Source of the DNA: Chiloscyllium plagiosum
Taxonomy: Eukaryota
Length of the DNA stretch: 20,000 nucleotides
Reading direction: 5' to 3'
Assembly: GCF_004010195.1 (NCBI RefSeq)
Contig: NC_057718.1
Span: 9,342,366 to 9,362,365, forward strand
Below the pieces are notes generated by a model. The model saw nothing but the letters and a program-made list of their open reading frames with translations, did no database searches and was not told the DNA's origin. Positions 2,830 through 18,756 of this stretch are shown piece by piece (position 1 is the first letter of the stretch; every line of letters starts with the position of its first letter). A program made the translations under genes and the position numbers.

Positions 2830-3450
2830 ATAAGACCATCACACCATACGATATAGGTGCAGAATTAGGCCATTTGGCCCATCATGTCGGTTCCACCATT
2901 CAACGATAGCTGATATGTTTCTCAATCCGTTGTCCTGCCTTCTCCCTACGTCAGATGGCAGGGTGGCTCACAGGGCCAGGAACCTGGGCTCAATTCCAGC
3001 CTTGAGCAACTGTTGATGTGGAGTTTGCTCCCAGTGTCTGCATGGGTTTCCTCTGGATTCTCTGGTTTCCTCCCACAATACGAAGACGTGCAGATTAGAT
3101 GAGTTGGCCATACTAAAATTGTCCCATAGTGTTCAAGGATCTGTAGGTTAGGGGAATGGGTCTGGGTGGGTTGTCCTTTGGAGGGTCAGAGTGCACTAGT
3201 TGGGCCAAATGTAGGGATTCTATGATAATGCCTGCACCCCTTACAAATCAAGAATCTATCTATCTCCGTCTTAAATATGCCCAATGACTTGGCCTCCACA
3301 ACCTTCTATGACAAAAAAATCCACAGATTCGCCACCTTTTGGCTGAAGAAACCCGTCCTCCTCAGTTCTAAAAGGTCATCCCTTAACTCTGTGTCTCCTA
3401 CTCTTGGAAACATATTTCCACATTCACTCTATCCAGGCCTACTCAGTATT
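2830..3450 (-). mobile_element. CR1 LINE 3' end (second subfamily), split by an HE1 SINE
   Basis: Tail taagaccat...gcagaattaggccatttggccc at 2830-2946; resumes at ~3226 with the reverse complement of the ORF2 end. Confidence 0.8.
2957..3224 (+). mobile_element. HE1-like V-SINE (diverged)
   Basis: tRNA-like head, V-domain GGGTTTCCTCTGGATTCTCTGGTTTCCTCCCACA, tail ...gtagggattctatga. Confidence 0.9.
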
Positions 3451-5035: not shown

Positions 5036-5806
5036 CATGGAAACAGACCCTTCGATCCAACTCATACATGCTGACCAAATATCCTAAATTAATCTAGCCG
5101 CATTGTCAGTATTTGGCCCATATCCTTCTAAACCATTCCTATTCATGTACCCCGATGCCTTTTAAATGTTATAATTGTACCAGCCTCCACCACTTCCTCT
5201 GGCAGCTCATTCCACTCACGCACCACCCTCTGCATGAAAAAGTTGCTCCTCAAGTCCCTTTTAAATCCTTCCCCTCTCACCTTAAACCTATACATTCAAG
5301 TTTTGGACTCCTCCACCCTGGGGAAAAGGCCTTGGCTACTTATCCTATCCATGCACCCCCATGTGGGTGATACGGTGGCTCAGTGGTTAGCACTGCTGCC
5401 TCACAGCACTAGGGACCCAGATTCAATTCCGGCCTCGGGCGACTGTCTGTGTGGAGTTTGCACATTCTCCCAGTGTCTGCGTGGGTTTCCTCCGGGTGCT
5501 CCGGTTTCCTCCCACAGTCAAAGATGTGCAGGTCAGATGAATTAGCCACGCTAAATTGCCCATAGTGTTAGGTGCATTAGTCAGGGTAAATATAGGGTCG
5601 GGGAATGGGTCTGGGTGGGTTTCTCTTCAGAGGGTCAGTATGAACTTGTTGGGCCGAAGGACTTGTTTCCGTACTGTAAAGTATCTAATCTAATGATTTT
5701 ATGAACCTCTAAGGTCACCCTTCAGCCTCCAATGCTCCAGGTAAACAGCCCCAGCCTATTCAGCCTCTCTCTGCAGCTCAAACTCTCCAATCCCGGCCAC
5801 ATCCTC
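5036..5806 (-). mobile_element. CR1-clade LINE (HER1-like) 3' fragment, split by an HE1 SINE
   Basis: Reverse complement of the 10046-10572 type; breaks at ~5363 and resumes at ~5693 (MWPGLESLSCRERLNRLGLF in ORF 5722-5925). Confidence 0.92.
5364..5692 (+). mobile_element. Full-length HE1-like V-SINE
   Basis: A box TGGCTCAGTGG (5376-5386), B box GATTCAATTCC (5420-5430), V-domain, ATCTA tail; ATG shared at both junctions. Confidence 0.95.
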
Positions 5807-6187: not shown

Positions 6188-6688
6188 ATTTTATTCACGG
6201 CCAAAACTGGTATTTGCTACCTCAATCCCAGTTGCCCTCAGCTTACTAGGGGCATTTCCAAAGGCAGTTAAAAGTCAACCTCATTGCTGTGGGTCTTGAG
6301 TCACGCGTAGGAGAAAGTGAGGACTGCCGATACTGGAGAGTCAAAGTCAAAAAGTGAGGTCACTGGAAAAAGCACAGCAGGTCAGGCAGCATCCGAAGAG
6401 CAGGAGAATCGATGTGTCAGGCATAACCTTTCATCAAGATTTCCTGCTGAAGGACTTATGTCCAGAACATCAACTCTCCTGCTCCTCGGATGCTGCCTGA
6501 CCTGCTGTGTTTTTCCAGCGCCACACATTTCAATTTGAAGTCACATGTAGGCCAGACCAGAGTAGCGCAGCAGATTTCCTTCTCTTAAAGGACGTGAGAG
6601 AATCAGTTGGGTTTTAAACGTTAATGCTAGCTGTCACAATCGCCATCAGTGAGACTTGCTTTATACTCCACATTTTTCTTTATATGTT
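6188..6688 (-). mobile_element. MetaSINE-like tRNA-derived SINE (3' part; head probably displaced to 8021-8116)
   Basis: Reverse complement of the family at 13307-13738 (cagatttccttc...aaggac, gtcaacc.cattgctgtgggtc); the MetaSINE label rests on recall of the GGGAAGGAAA.CTGCC.TC.TTACC.GGTCTGGCC domain. Confidence 0.7.
6312..6538. mobile_element. PLE-derived fold-back (inverted terminal repeat) insertion
   Basis: Inverted arms ~6363-6438 and ~6443-6518; TSD AGTCACGCGTAGG (6299-6311) / AGTCACATGTAGG (6539-6551); degenerate hammerhead motif in each arm. Confidence 0.8.
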
Positions 6689-7061: not shown

Positions 7062-7415
7062 TTTCTGCATGGGTTTCCCCGTATCTGTGTGGATTTCCTC
7101 CTGGTATTCTGGTTTCCTCCCACAATCCAAAGTTGTGCAGGTTAGGTGAATTGGACATGTTAAATTGCCCATAGTGTTAGTTGCATGAGTCAGGGGTAAA
7201 TATAGGGTAGAGCTGAAAATGTGTTGCTGGAAAAGCGCAGCAGGTCAGGCAGCATCCAGGGAACAGGAGAATCGACGTTTCGGGCATAAGCCCGGGCATA
7301 TAGGGTAGGGGAGTGGATCTGGGTGGGTTATTCTTTCAAGGATCGGTGTGGACTTGTTGGGCCAAAGGGCTTGATTTCATACTGTAGGGTATCTAATTTA
7401 ATCCATCTAATCTAA
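7062..7415 (+). mobile_element. HE1-like V-SINE, 5'-truncated, with a PLE-derived insert
   Basis: V-domain 7085-7130; ATCTA tail 7390-7415. Confidence 0.9.
7211..7297 (-). mobile_element. 87-bp PLE-derived insertion
   Basis: Perfect 11-bp TSD ATATAGGGTAG (7200-7210 and 7298-7308); minus strand reads GGGC-TTAT-GCCC-GAAACGTCGA. Confidence 0.85.
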
Positions 7416-7609: not shown

Positions 7610-7921
7610 GGGTGGCATGCAAACCAGGGACCTGGGTTTGATTCCAGCCTTGGTGTGACTGTTTGGAATTTGCATGTCCTCCCCATGTCTGTGTGGGTTT
7701 CCCCTGGGTTGTCCTGTTTCCTCCCATAGTCCAAAGGTGTGCAGGTTAGATGAATTGGCTGTGCGAATTTGCCCATTGTGTTCAGGGAGAAGTAGGCTAG
7801 GCTCATTAGTCAGGGGAAATGTAGAATAACAGGGGAATGGGACTGAATGGGATATTCTTCAGAGAGTTGGTATGGACTTGTTGGGCCAAATGGCCTGTTC
7901 CAACACAGCAGGGATTCTATG
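7610..7921 (+). mobile_element. HE1-like V-SINE
   Basis: B box GGTTTGATTCC, V-domain, tail gggattctatg. Confidence 0.9.
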
Positions 7922-8432
7922 TTGAAAAATAATTGTTTGACTGCTCCACATCTGTCTCCCAATCTCTCTCTAAAAGAAACCAGGACAAAACAGAGCTCTT
8001 ATAGCCATAACATTGTCACATTTTTGAATCAACTTGCTACGACACACCGCTGGGGGAGGTGGGACTTGAAACTCGGTCTCCTAGCTGTGGTGGGGGGACA
8101 CTGCCACTGCACCATAGCCCTTACTCTGCAGTTTTGTCAATTGAGTTTAAATTCCACCAGCTGATGGAGTTTGGATCAATGTCCTCAGAACATCAGCCTC
8201 ATCATTGTGCATTGCCATCCCTGCAACATTACCACCACACCACTATTGGTCATGTGCGTGAACCACAGCTGAGCACAGGAAATACTTTAATTTACCATTT
8301 TACGCCATCAGGTTGACCCAAAGAGCCCTTTAGTCAACACCTCCTCCTTCTTAATTTGAACGTACCTTAGAATATCTACATTCCCATTCCTAAACATCTC
8401 ATCACCATGTCCTTCTCATTGGTGACTACCAA

Positions 8433-8754
8433 GGTGGCATGATGACACAGTGGTTAGCACTGCTGCCTCACAGCGCCAGGGACCTGGGTTCGATTCCAGC
8501 CTTGTGCGACTGTCTGTGTGGAGTTTGCACATTCACCCTGTGTCTGCGTGGGTTTCCTTCCACTGTCCAAAGATGTGCAGGTCAGGTCAATTCGCCATGC
8601 TAAATTGCCCGTAGTGATCAGGGATGTGTAGGTTAGGTACATCCATCAGGGGGAAATATAGGGTAAGAGAAATGGGTCTGGGCGGGTTACTGTTCAGAGG
8701 ATCAGTGTGGACTGGTTGGGTCGAAGGGCCTGTTTCTACAGTGTGGGGATTCTA
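8433..8754 (+). mobile_element. HE1-like V-SINE, full length
   Basis: A-box-like TGACACAGTGG, B box GGTTCGATTCC, V-domain with an internal deletion, tail ggggattctat. Confidence 0.93.
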
Positions 8755-9174
8755 TAAACTTCAATGCACAGTACTCATTAAGAGCCTTATCACTACTATT
8801 TGCCTACACTTTGAACCTCCCTGCTACACAACACTTTTGGTACCAGTGACCTGTTGCTGTTCTCAGAGGCCATTCTGCCCTCTCACAAAATGGTGTCCAA
8901 AATGGTGCACCTGATAGAGAGGGGAATAGGGTCACAGGGGACTCCAGCAATGCCTGGTGGTCATCCATCTATTTGATTGAACCTTTGGTGTGATGACATC
9001 CCTGAAATCCCGATCTATAAAATGTTCCATCTCCTGGATGCTCCTCAGATCAAGGATCTATTGCCCCAACCTGGAGCAAATGTACCCTTGGGGCAAGTTT
9101 TTGAAACATAACAGGGGAAGGCAAAGTGATGAGTGCCATCCACTGATGTAAACAGCTACCATGGTAACCAGACT

Positions 9175-10045: not shown

Positions 10046-10572
10046 TCAATTCTGGTCTCCCTGCTATAGGAAGGATGGTGTGAAACTTGAAAGGGTTCAG
10101 AAAAGATTTACAAGGATGTTGCCAGGGTTGGAGGGGTTGAGCTACAGGGAGAGGCTAAATAGGCTGGAGCTATTTTCCCTGGAGCATCGGAGGCTGAGGG
10201 GTGACCTTATAGAGGTTTACAAAATCATGAGGAGCATGGGTAGGATAAAGAGACAAAGTCTTTTCCCTGAGGTCGGGGAGTTCAGAACTAGAGGGCATAA
10301 GTTTAGGGTGAGAGGAGAAAGATATAAAAGAGACCCAAGGGGCAACTTTTTCACACAGAGGGTGGTGTGTGTATGGAATGAGCTGCCAGAGGAAGTGGTG
10401 GAGGCTGGTACATTTGCAACATTTAAAAGACATCTGTATGGGTATATGAATAGGAAGGATTGAGAGGGATTTGGGCCAAATACTGACAAATGGGACTAGA
10501 TTAGGTTAGGATACCTGGTTGGCATGGACATGTTGGATTGAAGGGTCTGTTTCCGTGCTGTACATCTCTATG
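10046..10572 (+). mobile_element. CR1-clade LINE (HER1-like), 5'-truncated, relatively young
   Basis: Uninterrupted 127-codon ORF2 C-terminus at 10080-10463 (LERVQKRFTRMLPGLEGLSYRERLNRL...RRLRGDLIEVYKIM). Confidence 0.96.
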
Positions 10573-10580
10573 CCTTGCTC

Positions 10581-10614
10581 TTCCTGATGAAGGGCTTTTG
10601 CCTGAAACGTCGAT
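10581..10614 (+). ncRNA. Minimal type I hammerhead ribozyme motif (putative)
   Basis: CUGAUGA 10584-10590, extra A, stem II GGGC/UUUU/GCCU 10592-10603, GAAA 10604-10607, CGUC with predicted cleavage after C10611; stem I only 2 bp. Activity unproven. Confidence 0.7.
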
Positions 10615-10690
10615 TTTCCTGCTCCTCGGATGCTGCCTGACACTCTAATCTAGACTCCGGTTTCCAGCATCTGCAGTCCTTGTTTTTACC
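10581..10690 (+). mobile_element. PLE-derived terminal repeat fragment
   Basis: Near-identical to 13540-13670 apart from an internal deletion. Confidence 0.85.
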
Positions 10691-11348
10691 CTTATAAAAT
10701 ACCTGACATCCTGAAGGACTCACAGCTGATGAAGTACAGTGGCTATTGCAATGTAGGGAGCCAACTTACCGAGCAAGATCCCACAAACAGCAACATGAGG
10801 ATGGCTAGATAATCTGTTTTAGTGATGTTGATTGAGAGGTAAATATTGACCAGGACACCAGGGAGTATTCACCAACGTTTCTCCAAAATAACGCCATAGG
10901 ATCTTTGGCCTCCACTGGAAGGCAGACAGAGCCTTTGGTTAAACACTCCTCAGCCCCTGGGGAGTGCTGCACTCCACCAGTACTCGACACATCGATTCCT
11001 TTTGTGCACAAGTTCTGAGGCAAATAGGACTTGAACCCACAGCCTTTCAATACAGAGGCATCAGCAGTACCTTAACTGGCCCACAGACTGAGGGAGAGAG
11101 TTAGCAGACGAGAGGAAATAAACTAATGAGGGAAGACAGAAGGATAAGCAGATTGTTTTCACAGAATGCCAGACTAACATCTTGCAAAGCGTCCAGCCAT
11201 TTTCTGCACAAGGCAAATAGCAATATGATGAATGAAAGTTGCTATATAAATGCAATTCTTTCTTTATATATTCAGAAAACTCTATTTTGATAAATTTCAG
11301 TAAATAAGTAGAATCCATGGGATTGTGAGCATTATATTGGACATTCCT

Positions 11349-11820
11349 TGAAACTTGAAGATTTACAAGGATGTTGCCAGGGTTGGAGAATTTGAGCTAC
11401 AGGGAGAGGCTGGAACAGGCTGGGGCCGTTTTCCCTGGAGCGTCAGAGGCTGAGGGGTGACCTTATAGAGGTTTACAAAATTATGAGGGGCATGGATAGG
11501 GCAAATAGACAAAGTCTTTTTCCTGAGGTTGGGGAGTCTAGAACTAGAGGGCATAGGTTTAGGGTGAAAGGGGAAAGATATAAAAGAGACCTACAGGGCA
11601 ACTTTTTCCACACAGAGGGTGGTACGTATATGGAATGAGCTGCCAGAGGCTGGTACAATTGCAACATTTAAGAGGCATTTGGATGGGTATATGAATAGGA
11701 AGGATTTGGAGGGGTATGGGCCGGTTGCTGGCAGGTGGGACTAGATTGGGTTGGGATATCTGGTCAGCATGGACGGGTTGGACCGAAGGGTCTGTTTCCA
11801 TGGTGTACCTCTCTATGACT
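11349..11820 (+). mobile_element. CR1-clade LINE (HER1-like), 5'-truncated
   Basis: Colinear with 10081-10572, with small indels; tail ctctatgact. Confidence 0.95.
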
Positions 11821-11930
11821 TATGCCTGAAACGTCGACTCTCCTGCTCCTCAGATGCTGCCTGACCTGCTGCGCTTTTCCAGCACCACACTTTTTGACTC
11901 CGACTCTCCAGCATCTGCAGTCCTTATTTG
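11821..11930 (+). mobile_element. PLE-derived terminal repeat fragment, truncated within hammerhead stem II
   Basis: tatgcctGAAACGTCgactctcctgctcctcagatgctgcctgacctgctg...ccagcatctgcagtcct. Confidence 0.85.
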
Positions 11931-13306: not shown

Positions 13307-13738
13307 CAGGGAAAGCAATGGCCTAGTGGTATTATTGCTAGAATATTAGTCCATTGCTTTAGGAACCTGGGTTCAAATCCCACCATGACGGATGAATTCA
13401 ATAAAGAATTTGGATTTAAGGTTACATTGATGACCGCAATTGTTGGAAAAACCCAACTGGTTTGTTACTGCTTTTCAGGGAAGGAAATCTGCCATCTTTA
13501 CCTGGTCTGGCCGAGATCCACAACAATGTGGTTGCTGTATTCCTGGTGAAGGGCTTTTGCCCGAAACGTTGATTTTCCTGTTCCTCGGATGCTGCCTGAA
13601 CTGCTGTGCTTTTCCAGCACCACTCTAATCCAGAATCTGGTTTCCAGCATCTGCAGTCATTGTTTTTACCTAGCAATGTGGTTGCATCTAACTGCCTCTG
13701 GACGATTGGTCTAGCTAGAGATACCCAAATTCCACAAG
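13307..13738 (+). mobile_element. MetaSINE-like tRNA-derived SINE
   Basis: A box TGGCCTAGTGG (~13319), B box GGTTCAAATCC (~13370), central cagggaaggaaatctgccatctttacctggtctggcc. Confidence 0.8.
13536..13671 (+). mobile_element. PLE-derived insertion with a hammerhead motif (A6 to G)
   Basis: TSD CAATGTGGTTGC (13524-13535 and 13674-13685); CTGGTGA-A-GGGC-TTTT-GCCC-GAAA-CGTT at 13543-13570. Confidence 0.88.
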
Positions 13739-14366
13739 AGCCAAAGGGCCTGTTTCCACACTAAGTAATCTAATCTTAATCTGATTTTAAATGGATTTTA
13801 AAAAAGGGAGTTAATGAGATGGGTTTGGTAAGATACAGCGAGAAATCTCACAGGGCCTCAGACCTCCTGCAAATACTCAACACAACTCACGCTTGGCCGA
13901 GAAAAAGGTAAAATCCAGCCACTTGGCACGAGGGTAAAAGCACAGTGCATGCTGGAAATCTGGATTAAAGGAAGAAAGTGGGGAAATTTTGATGGGAATG
14001 AGGAGCGAACGATTAACATTTACTCTGTCTCACTCTCCACATGCTTCCTGGCTGAATATTTACAGGATTGTTCAACACCTTGATGTTGACTTAAGGCAAA
14101 GTCCAACTCAGTTTCAGAGAATTGTGAAAGAGAAACTTCTTTACACGGAGAACTATGAGACTTTGGATTTCACTGACCCAGGTAGTGCCCCAGTAAGGAA
14201 CTAAGGCTGTTTTTAACATTATGCAGATTTTTTTCTTTATTCATTCATGGGATGAGGGCATCGCTAGCCAGTCAGCATTTATTACCCTTCCATAATTGCA
14301 CAAAGGGCAATTAAGAGTCAACCACATTGCTGTTTGTTCTGGAATCACATGTAAACCAGACCAGGT

Positions 14367-15006
14367 GGAGAGGAGGCAGGAAGGACACAGCAAGCCAGGC
14401 AGCATCACAGCAGGTGGAGAAGTCGACGTTTCGGCTGGGAGGAGCAGAAGAGGGAGGGAGGGTGTGGGAAGGAAGTCAGGGGATGGGACGAGAGGTTATT
14501 TGAAATTGGAGAACTCAGTGTCGAGTCCTCCGGGCTGTAGGCTGCCCAGGCAGATGAGGTGTTAGATTACATTACATTAGATTACATTACAGTGTGGAAA
14601 CAGGCCCTTCGGCCCAACAAGTCCACACCGACCTGCCGAAGCGTAACCCACCCATACCCCTACATTTACCCCTTACCTAACACTACGGGCAATTTAGCAT
14701 GGCCAATTCACCTGACCTGCACATCTTTGGTCTGAAAGAGGAAACTGGAGCACCCGGAGGAAACCCACGCAGACACGGGGAGAAAGTGCAAACTCCACAC
14801 AGTCAGCCGCCTGAGGCAGGAATTGAACCCGGGTCTCTGGCGCTGTGAGGCAGCAGTGCTAACCACTGTGCCACCGTGCCGCCAATTTGCAGTGTGGCTC
14901 GTTGTGGCAATGGAGGAGGCCAAGAGTGGTCATGTTGGAGAGGGAGTGGGAAGGGGAATTGAAATGGGCGGTGACTGGGAGATCCGGTCAGCCCCTGCGG
15001 GCTCAG
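14367..15006 (-). mobile_element. Penelope-like element 3' fragment: GIY-YIG endonuclease C-terminus plus terminal repeat
   Basis: Minus translation PDLPVTAHFNSPSHSLSNMTTLGLLHCHNEPHCKL, then the SINE insertion, then HLICLGSLQPGGLDTEFSNFK* (stop 14496-14498); CCGAAACGTCGAC downstream at 14422-14434. Confidence 0.88.
14564..14884 (-). mobile_element. Young full-length HE1-like V-SINE
   Basis: Intact A/B boxes and V-domain, many CpGs retained, long AATGT/AATCT tail at 14564-14590. Confidence 0.96.
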
Positions 15007-15825: not shown

Positions 15826-16345
15826 GAATCCCTACAGTGGGCTATTCGGCCCATCGAGTCTGCACCAACCCTCTGAAGAGCATCCCACCCAGACCCATCC
15901 CCCTACCTCTCACCATATTTCCCATGGTCTAACCCAGCAAACCTGCACATTCTGGGACACTATGGAGAAACCAAAACAAAACCTGCGGATGCTGCAAATC
16001 AGAAACAAAAGCAGATGTTGCTGGGAAAGCTCAGCAGGTCTGGCAGCATCTGTAAAGAGAGAAATCAGAGTCAACATTTCGTGCTGAGTGACTCTTCCTC
16101 AAAATGCTAACTCCGATTTCTCTCCACAGATGCTGCTGAGCTTTTCCAGCAATTTCTGTTCCTGGACACAACAGGCAACTTCCCACAGCCAATCCACCTA
16201 ATGGACATCATCTGATTGTGGGGAGGAAACCAGAGCAAACCCATGGGGAGAACGTGCAAACCCCACACAGACGGCCGCCCGAGGCTGGAATCGAACGCAG
16301 GCCATTGTGAGGCAGCAGTGCTAACCACCGAACCACTGTGCCACC
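15826..16345 (-). mobile_element. HE1-like V-SINE split by a PLE-derived insert
   Basis: Tail tagaatccctacagtg at ~15825; head (cagcagtgctaaccac) at ~16313-16345. Confidence 0.88.
15966..16160 (-). mobile_element. PLE-derived fold-back insertion, second subfamily
   Basis: Inverted arms (gctgggaaagctcagcag...cagcatctgt versus acagatgctgctgagcttttccagc); minus strand TTGAGGA-A-GAGTC-ACTC-AGCAC-GAAATGTT; degenerate TSD around ggacac. Confidence 0.7.
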
Positions 16346-17584: not shown

Positions 17585-18081
17585 ACCTCCACTGCTGCTG
17601 CCTGGGACTCAATTTTGGGGCTGCCTGGGACTTGCTTTGGGGACCCTCCCCAACAGGCCTGCCCCCACCGCTGCGACCAAGGGCCTGCCTAGGACTTGCC
17701 AGAGGCTTGCCTCCACTGCTGCTTTTGCCTGAGGCCTGCCTCCACCACCCCTGCCTGGGACTCGCCTTGGGCCCCTCCCCACAACCTCCACCACTACTGC
17801 TGCTGGAGGCCCACTTCCACCACCAACGCCTGGGACTCGCCTTGGGGCCCCTCCACCACTACTGCTGCCTGGGACTCAATTTTGGGGCTGCCTGGGACTT
17901 GCCTTGGGGACCCTCCCCAACAGGTCTGCCCCCCACTGCTGCAACCAAGGGCCTGCCTAGGACTTGCCTGAGGCCTGCCTACAACGACCGCTGCCTGGGA
18001 CTCGCCTTGGGCCCCTCCCCACAACCTCGACTACTACTGCTGCCTGGGACTCAATTTTGGGGCTGCCTGGGACTTGCCTTG
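17585..18081. repeat. GC-rich higher-order tandem repeat (~2.3 units)
   Basis: GGGACTCAATTTTGGGGCTGCCTGGGACTTGC at 17604, 17871 and 18046 (periods 267 and 175), built from a recurring CTGCCTGGGACTYGCCTTGG sub-motif. Confidence 0.92.
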
Positions 18082-18756
18082 GTCGTGATCTCCAACATCC
18101 TGCCCTTCATTGCCAGCGAGCTCTTTCTCCCCCACCTCACCACCCTGGGGGAGATCTGGTCGGGTGTCCAACCGCTCCTGCTTGGTCTTAAGGACCCCAC
18201 CCTCTGACACATATACTCCTTCCGACACCAGGTGTTCATTTGCCTGGCCCGGGAGGAGGTCACCGAGGGCTCTTTCACCCTCCTCCACGAAGCCACGGCC
18301 TACTGCGCCTTCTGGACGGCGTGCGGTGCCACCTGTGCCTCGAGGTGGGGCACATTAGAAAAAACTGCCCCACCCAGAAGGCTGCCCAGCCCACACCAAC
18401 GGCTGATGGTGGTGCCACCGCACCCACTCCCCCTCCCCCGAAGTCAACACCACAGGCCCCAGCACCAGAGGCTCCCAATGCTCCAGCCTCTGGCAGGGAG
18501 GGGGGTGAGCGTCCGGCCGGCCAGAAGGCGCTCAAGAAGACGCGATGCCTCAGGCCCACCCACGGGGAGACCACCCTATCCCCTTCCCCGACACCTAGCC
18601 CATGACCTGCCCCGCCCCAGCACAACAATGGCCCTGCGGCTGTGCCAGCGTCGCCCCAGGCCGGGAACCCTGACCCCCAAACCCGTGCCTGATCCTGGAC
18701 CCACTGACCCCACATCCACCCCCCACCCCAATAGAGAAACCCCTGGGGCTTCAACA

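Follow-up and report, generated by a model that had tools for sequence, protein, structure and literature searches.

All canonical EN+ Penelope-like elements (PLEs) have been reported to carry minimal hammerhead ribozymes, according to the available portions of two articles (PMC4209133, PMC8557442). Cervera and de la Pena (2014) found minimal type I hammerheads in the repeats (pLTRs) that flank every PLE they examined, and their account, as far as its text was available, characterises these motifs by the absence of helix III, a palindromic 15.2/16.2, one unpaired base following A9 and G10.1-C11.1 as a conserved pair; helix I measures 4-5 bp, with 2 bp in D. virilis, and helix II mostly 6-8 bp (PMC4209133). 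In vitro activity was low and was reported only for dimers or trimers, and copy numbers of ~4,000 in coelacanth and 9,000 in Xenopus were called remarkable (PMC4209133). An earlier sequence-only reading of the locus treated below took it as established that such hammerheads cleave as dimers; this is indeed a published model, but one with low measured activity and not settled fact.

Two further systems are close to the present one. The hammerhead of the Poseidon element of Anolis carolinensis was found to cut only with protein and to be dispensable for insertion in vitro, and in the accessible part of that study no RNA-seq reads end at the cut (PMC11167929). Non-LTR retrozymes are PLE-derived, non-autonomous elements built of type I hammerhead repeats in tandem, from which circular RNAs arise, and the available text of a preprint reports them in a single sampled cartilaginous-fish species (bioRxiv 10.64898/2026.07.22.740005). 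Apart from this 2026 preprint, whose supplements may name species and families, no literature on cartilaginous-fish hammerheads was found.

The DNA analysed here, referred to as the window, is a 20-kb stretch (20,000 nucleotides) of the genome of Chiloscyllium plagiosum. Read directly, its positions 10581-10614 are ttCCTGATGAAGGGCTTTTGCCTGAAACGTCGAt, and by its layout the motif contained in them is of a known kind, a Penelope-type minimal hammerhead. All hammerhead boxes (C3 U4 G5 A6 N7 G8 A9, G12 A13 A14, A15.1/U16.1 and H17) are present at 10584-10611. In the window copy, C3-A9 (CUGAUGA) occupies 10584-10590 and is followed by the unpaired extra A at 10591; helix II consists of 4 bp (10592-10595 with 10600-10603: G.U, G-C, G-C and C-G) closed by loop 2, UUUU (10596-10599), after which come GAA at 10604-10606 and the palindromic, loop-less ACGU at 10607-10610. 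Since C17 is 10611, with GA following at 10612-10613, the predicted cut lies between 10611 and 10612. The outer pair of helix II (10.1-11.1) is G-C in the family; this copy, whose T at 10603 falls on a CpG, has G.U instead. Likewise, the 5' strand of helix I is AUUC in family copies and has C at 10580 in the window copy. Table 1 gives the coordinates of these and the other features of the window.

Table 1. Features of the repeat family and its neighbours in the 20-kb window
Feature	Position	Strand	Basis or remark
Minimal type I hammerhead motif	10584..10611	+	Sole descriptor match in the window; family features from the consensuses
Helix I, 5' strand	10580..10583	+	UC 10582-10583 pairs with GA 10612-10613
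Helix I, 3' strand (GAUU)	10612..10615	+	Followed by a stretch variable between sublineages
Terminal unit copy (motif and tail) of the Penelope-like element	10581..10690 (nhmmer 10566-10697)	+	3' end matched to family end
Unit copy with broken core (A6>G, U17; motif at 13543)	13535..13674	+	nhmmer and alignment
Head-to-head inverted pair of two decayed units	6313..6530 (minus arm 6313-6458, plus arm 6437-6530)	.	nhmmer
5'-truncated copy, begins inside helix II, lacks the CUGAUGA box	7213..7293	-	nhmmer
5'-truncated copy, begins in helix II, directly behind a (presumed) CR1-like LINE 3' end	11815..11929	+	nhmmer
5'-truncated decayed copy, begins at the 3' side of helix II	14326..14434	-	nhmmer
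Old subfamily D copy: N7 = G, U17, different loop, lacks C3	15973..16101	-	nhmmer
Different, LINE-like repeat, 3' end; adjoins the 10581 unit	10088..10580	+	No Pfam family

The motif stands out from the composition of the window. A descriptor script that asked for CTGANGA with 0-1 extra base, four or more pairs in helix II, GAAA, 15.2 and 16.2 able to pair, and finally U and H returned exactly one site, 10584, across both strands of the 20 kb; of 500 dinucleotide-shuffled versions of the window, a single one contained any site. The sequence-only reading had claimed every core base, an extra A after A9 and a loop-less palindromic ACGU, and had proposed a descriptor search as a check; direct reading and the descriptor bear out all three, the sole match being the site that it had named. 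Rfam gave a different picture: over the whole window no family reaches threshold at gathering score, and at E<=10 there are 17 matches, weak microRNA-like or other, with 0 hammerheads, while slices of 121 and 151 bases gave no match to a hammerhead model. Compared with the canonical type I hammerheads of Rfam (Hammerhead_1, HH9, HH10), the motif has the same core and strand topology and likewise a helix II of 4 bp, but it lacks the helix III hairpin and the loop 1-loop 2 contacts, and it has no Rfam match.

The resemblance to the pLTR hammerheads of PLEs, in so far as the available text of PMC4209133 describes them, is closer. Both have the same boxes, the unpaired base between A9 and 10.1, G10.1-C11.1 (here in the family consensus), the palindrome and no helix III, and both lie in the terminal repeat of an element with reverse transcriptase (RT) and GIY-YIG endonuclease, mostly dispersed as solo units or opposed pairs. 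The differences are as follows: helix II here has 4 bp and a 4-base loop against 6-8 bp there; helix I has 2 bp against 4-5 bp there, the D. virilis variant alone being reported with 2 bp; the subfamilies here are highly uniform, as that text reports for D. virilis only; and the copy number lies far above the ~4,000 of coelacanth and the 9,000 of Xenopus (PMC4209133). The Anolis Poseidon hammerhead, too, is a pLTR hammerhead of a vertebrate PLE, and its insertion from uncleaved RNA matches the cut-spanning copies described below; unlike the present motif, which starts a terminal unit ~250 bases past the end of the open reading frame (ORF), it overlaps the ORF start, and its protein-assisted cleavage has been shown, whereas cleavage here is predicted from sequence (PMC11167929, accessible part). 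With the non-LTR retrozymes, as described in the available text of 10.64898/2026.07.22.740005, the repeat shares its PLE derivation, its non-autonomous nature and its hammerhead; retrozymes are, however, tandem arrays with a hammerhead in each unit, and no tandem array of the unit occurs in the 20-kb window.

The parent element could be read from copies that extend upstream of the motif. In these, an ORF ending ...LGTLQPQGINVDF precedes the motif, which lies ~250 bases downstream of the end of the endonuclease coding part and heads a terminal unit of ~130 bases ending in ...TTTTTACC. The 292-aa ORF at locus L012 matches three longer proteins, the best named one being an uncharacterised protein of the shark Stegostoma tigrinum (59% identity), and the second match, P0002 (902 aa), contains both RVT_1 (8.5e-11) and GIY-YIG (1.2e-7). 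Residues 721-898 of P0002 align with the L012 ORF (46% identity, E 1e-47) and residues 487-652 with an RT fragment at L016 (47%, E 2e-52), the YIDD box included. On the genome's own ORF pieces Pfam found GIY-YIG only (L010 ORF, E 0.005, 17.5 bits against a cut-off of 22.6) and no RVT_1; six short ORFs and four of five longer ORFs had no Pfam match, and a PDB sequence search likewise returned none. The low-identity ORF matches that were inspected are decayed copies of the same family, and no unbroken full-length copy of the element was seen among the loci inspected. 'Open frames' of 890-2191 aa beside ORF matches were considered as intact elements and rejected, as they are runs of N; at L021 and L022, N runs of 3.3 kb and 0.7 kb beside ORF matches give false 'open frames' of more than 1000 aa. 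A cysteine linker read by eye precedes the endonuclease (C-HRRN-C-KT-C in L016 and L013, C-KRRR-C-FT-C in P0002). Since a CX2-5CxxC linker at this place has been tied to the Neptune and Nematis clades (PMC8557442, available part), the C-X4-C-X2-C form suggests the Neptune group as a tentative placement.

The insertions themselves are of a PLE type. At L050, a unit, the 5' part of the element and a second unit follow one another between target duplications, which is a partial-tandem insertion, and at L051 a head-to-head pair, of a kind that is frequent, is flanked by a ~20-base duplication; partial-tandem and head-to-head insertions with target duplications have been described for PLEs in the available text of PMC8557442. 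Among the first 100 matches listed, three direct motif pairs were 406-523 bases apart, and the two direct pairs that were inspected are partial-tandem PLE insertions. From the upstream RT/GIY-YIG ORF together with these insertions it follows that the repeat unit is, as judged from sequence, the terminal non-coding unit of an EN+ Penelope-like retroelement. A short non-autonomous derivative of the element was also seen (L004 1008-1898 and L006 1087-1639), in which a partial tail and ~130-350 bases of the element's 5' part are joined straight to the 3'UTR, motif and tail.

Whether the core is better kept than its surroundings was asked of 85 copies aligned from 0.30 Mb of this genome's sequence, from which consensuses were drawn for subfamilies A (n=24), B (n=10), C1 (n=12), C2 (n=8) and the old D (n=10, a weakly supported consensus of old copies). 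Within C3-H17 the five consensuses vary only at N7 (U, A or G), at the fourth pair of helix II with loop 2 (C-UUUU-G, C-UUAU-G or U-CACU-G), at 11.1 (10.1-11.1 being G-C in A, B, C1 and D and G.U in C2) and at H17 (C, or U in subfamily D). Of the neighbouring columns, 23 of 47 differ between consensuses, while this holds for none of the 13 essential positions (Fisher p = 0.0009, with all rows aligned to an A-type query and subfamilies that share ancestry and are not independent). A core no better conserved than its flanks had been named in the sequence-only reading, together with a consensus dimer that does not cleave, as grounds for giving the ribozyme up, and the core turned out to be better kept. 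The extra A after A9 and the ACGU palindrome occur in all subfamilies, as does a helix II of 4 bp with a 4-base loop, and in every subfamily helix I has two Watson-Crick pairs (G1.1-C2.1, A1.2-U2.2) followed by U.U and A-U. An extended helix I was rejected, there being no complementarity past 2-4 positions in any subfamily, and the subfamily alignments hold no covariation in helix I within this genome. In the contig sets, variants at 10% or more inside the motif are C>T at three CpGs only. The positions that vary between subfamilies are, then, those that a hammerhead would tolerate; the far tail, however, is as conserved as the core, and therefore conservation alone is not specific to a ribozyme. 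The 5-6-base stretch right after GAUUU, 5-10 bases past the predicted cut, differs among near-identical young copies; its variants each recur in several copies (e.g. L001, L004, L006, L046), making it a sublineage change hot spot, and it shows no covariation with the upstream strand.

Distant relatives extend the comparison beyond the shark. A profile search with the ORF found four metagenome loci that encode relatives (L052-L055), and in two of these, L052 (45% aa identity) and L054 (59%), the same hammerhead block was recognised by eye ~140 bases past the ORF end, in flanks unrelated to the shark ones. Both keep G5, A6, G8, A9, the extra A, GG.C...GCC, GAA and ACGU, while N7, the loop and H17 vary. 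Each locus has one core change (L052 U4>C, L054 C3>U), as would be expected of single decayed copies. The strict descriptor found no site at any of the four loci, and neither it nor inspection by eye found a motif in L053 and L055. At 2.1-1.1 the three shark rows have C-G and the two relatives, L052 and L054, have A-U; helix I has three pairs in both relatives. Read from these alignments, the switch amounts to one putative compensatory event; with five rows that are effectively two lineages, and with 26 of 500 shuffles reaching the observed covariation score, the covariation is weak on its own.

Taken together, the best explanation is that 10584-10611 is a PLE minimal hammerhead at the front of a ~130-base terminal unit, and that 10581-10690 is one short insertion, a reading held at a probability of roughly 85%. 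In the RNA, CUGAUGA and GAA would form the catalytic core around helix II (GGGC/GCCC, loop UUUU), with G1.1-C2.1 and A1.2-U2.2 as the only pairs of helix I before U.U and A-U. Helix III would be absent within a single copy and would arise only upon pairing of the palindromic ACGU of two copies, after which the RNA would be cut behind C17 (window 10611). Activity is probably weak, and may need a second copy, the element's own protein or both. What the data show directly are the motif, its position in a PLE, how it is conserved and how many copies there are; folding into an active dimer, cleavage and a role in processing of the element's RNA are what we infer from the sequence by likeness to the known motifs.

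Predicted folds suggest how weak this activity might be. The favoured fold of the monomer, at -15.7 kcal/mol, keeps helix II and pairs U4-G8 with C15.2-G1.1, so that the core is hidden, while the hammerhead-compatible state lies at -7.2 kcal/mol. A double-hammerhead dimer held by the 4-bp ACGU is predicted at -18.9 against a dimer minimum of -37.5. The sequence-only reading was correct in calling stem III loop-less, but the folding model places the 4-bp helix between two molecules a long way from the favoured structure. Changes at N7 cost the competing hairpin one of its pairs, and thus this hairpin finds no support in covariation. The folds predict a low intrinsic activity, in line with the published assays.

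The family is abundant. In the 3.56-Gb genome, the motif 30-mer (with C or T at 11.1) has 43,781 matches at up to one mismatch, against 0 for the reversed 30-mer, and the C1 form (N7 = A) has 72,188; because a copy that is a single mismatch away from either pattern may be counted under both A/B and C1, the combined number is at least 72,188 and at most 115,969. The earlier description of an abundant short repeat was therefore, if anything, an understatement. A census of 42 copies (34 in 200 kb, from 20 randomly placed regions, and 8 in the window) contains the whole motif in 21 copies and an intact one in 5, and the 34 per 200 kb extrapolate to roughly half a million tail copies genome-wide.

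The majority of copies are short, beginning only a little before C3, as the earlier idea of ribozyme-bearing 'mini-elements' seeded in the genome had anticipated. C3 is reached by 28 of the 42 census copies, and a recognisable 3'UTR continues upstream in 6 of these and not in the other 22, of which 8 belong to subfamily D, for which there is no upstream reference. When contigs of three sequencing runs (organisms A, C and D) were placed on an A-type copy, k-mer depth stayed high from the end of the tail as far as the fourth base before C3 and then dropped ~6-fold, a drop to which subfamilies whose upstream sequence differs contribute. There, 59, 89 and 99 contigs pass into unlike flanks (agreement ~0.35), and the same junction is found within single insertions, twice at L050 and at the centre of L051. 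The A-type query accounts in part for the cluster of alignment starts at -12..+2. No pile-up of copy starts was seen at G1.1: 5 of the 42 copies start within +21..+33, and the top-ranked loose contig ends listed include none at G1.1. Inverted pairs with an arm starting at G1.1 (L041/2957, L038/2203) were considered as a sign of cleavage and set aside, as snap-back priming at the motif hairpin explains them equally well. The copies thus include the cut site, and most of them start ahead of it; the template RNA seems to begin just before the core, and uncleaved RNA appears, from these copies, to be what usually serves as the insertion template. Three points go beyond the known picture: how far the family has been amplified, how uniform each subfamily is while N7 and the loop differ from one subfamily to the next, and how sharply the unit begins on its 5' side, just ahead of C3.

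This 5' boundary lends weight to the strongest rival explanation, namely that the block is kept for a job other than self-cleavage, as part of an internal promoter or as a hairpin for the RT or endonuclease, with its hammerhead likeness an inherited relic. The 22 copies without upstream homology, the contigs that run off at the depth drop and the L050 and L051 junctions, which sit at the unit start within insertions flanked by target duplications, all count on its side, although 8 of those 22 are the subfamily D copies without an upstream reference. So do the favoured fold that sequesters the core, the 2-bp helix I and the lack of an Rfam match. The first base of the unit lies in the word TCATTC/TTATTC, which looks like a polymerase II initiator. 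Furthermore, PLE clades without hammerheads proliferate well, as the available text of PMC8557442 states. Set against this are the confinement of variation, between subfamilies and in distant relatives, to N7, loop 2 and H17, with catalytic bases invariant in the consensuses, a pattern that neither a promoter nor a plain hairpin predicts, and the change of the 2.1-1.1 pair on both sides between lineages. A role of this type and cleavage are moreover not exclusive, and as an account that does away with self-cleavage the relic is judged unlikely, though it merits attention.

A bolder extension of the preferred hammerhead reading is put forward tentatively, as a suggestion with the odds against it: the ~130-base unit may be a self-contained mini retroelement whose template RNA begins 1-4 bases upstream of C3, with the ribozyme as a brake or switch and not a processing step. 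If so, the hammerhead would be the very 5' end of the RNA and helix I would never exceed 4 pairs. As copies span the cut site, the ribozyme would normally be silent during copying, and as cleavage would remove the 5' end of the RNA, it would act as a brake or switch. The 72,188-115,969 near-intact motifs would then be the largest hammerhead reservoir among those found reported for a vertebrate genome.

Copies within the window illustrate how the family decays and where it inserts. With a 175-base query from a genome copy, nhmmer detected 8 copies of the unit in the 20 kb; about 7 had been counted from sequence alone, and all the places named then are real copies, the minus arm at 6313-6458 being the one missed. 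An unbroken core is found in the 10584 copy alone among the eight. Its unit begins 3 bases upstream of C3, ends ...TTTTTACC like the family and lacks ~21 tail bases after 10645. The sequence-only reading had put this copy forward as the best candidate for retained activity; as a lone copy with a wobble at 10.1-11.1 and a 2-bp helix I, of a type of motif for which published in vitro cleavage is poor, it is no more than a candidate. The copy at 6444 has A6>C plus two changes in GAA, and the one at 15973-16101 has a short inverted part upstream.

Two of the window units, which differ in subfamily and truncation point, each adjoin the 3' end (...CTCTATG...) of a LINE-like repeat, at 10515-10587 and 11760-11832. 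For the repeat at 10088-10580 the name 'CR1-like' is tentative and comes from a C-terminal motif; Pfam gave no match. The two junctions suggest a target preference for the terminal simple sequence of the LINE-like repeat, or template switching. They would also fit a rival account in which the motif belongs to the 3' tail of a LINE-like (CR1-like) repeat, or to a SINE borrowing that tail, and not to a PLE, as the unit directly follows such an end at both 10581 and 11815. Genome-wide, however, the unit follows the GIY-YIG/RT ORF, and other copies have unrelated flanks; the window junctions differ in subfamily and in truncation (c3-3, +7), and therefore are separate insertions at a similar target. 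A LINE origin is accordingly very improbable. Least credible of all, to the point of being negligible, is a chance resemblance in an abundant repeat: a few hundred chance descriptor sites are expected in 3.56 Gb (0.002 per 20 kb) and one could have been amplified, but the motif occupies the place known for PLE hammerheads, has in its extra base, G10.1-C11.1 and palindrome three traits not forced by the boxes, and is kept in subfamilies and in distant relatives with unrelated flanks.

Other repeats in the window were noted in passing. The head-to-head unit pairs at 6373-6508 and 16039-16139 form long hairpins with weak microRNA-family matches (mir-1791, 38 bits against 75 needed, for the 6313-6530 hairpin; mir-2131, 27.8 against 92), and such pairs could pass for microRNA genes. 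A different abundant repeat (families D1, D3, D11, D14 and D16-D18) lies at 2964-3245, 5366-5694, 7076-7402, 7656-7926, 8433-8761 and 14583-14883, and is probably a SINE, to judge from its tRNA-like head (a word of the ...GGTTCGATTCC... type). Direct repeats of 66-81 bases, unrelated to the motif, occupy 17586-18108 in a GC-rich block (62-66% GC from 18 kb on).

For annotation, the units and their head-to-head pairs mimic microRNA hairpins and are best masked as Penelope-like repeats. Insertion from uncleaved RNA, which the copies in this genome suggest, agrees with the in vitro result for Anolis in the accessible part of PMC11167929. In conclusion, the analysis places a Penelope-type minimal hammerhead in a cartilaginous-fish genome at a scale unreported in the literature searched, and a family so uniform and young is a good natural test set for asking whether minimal motifs cut in vivo, and what for.
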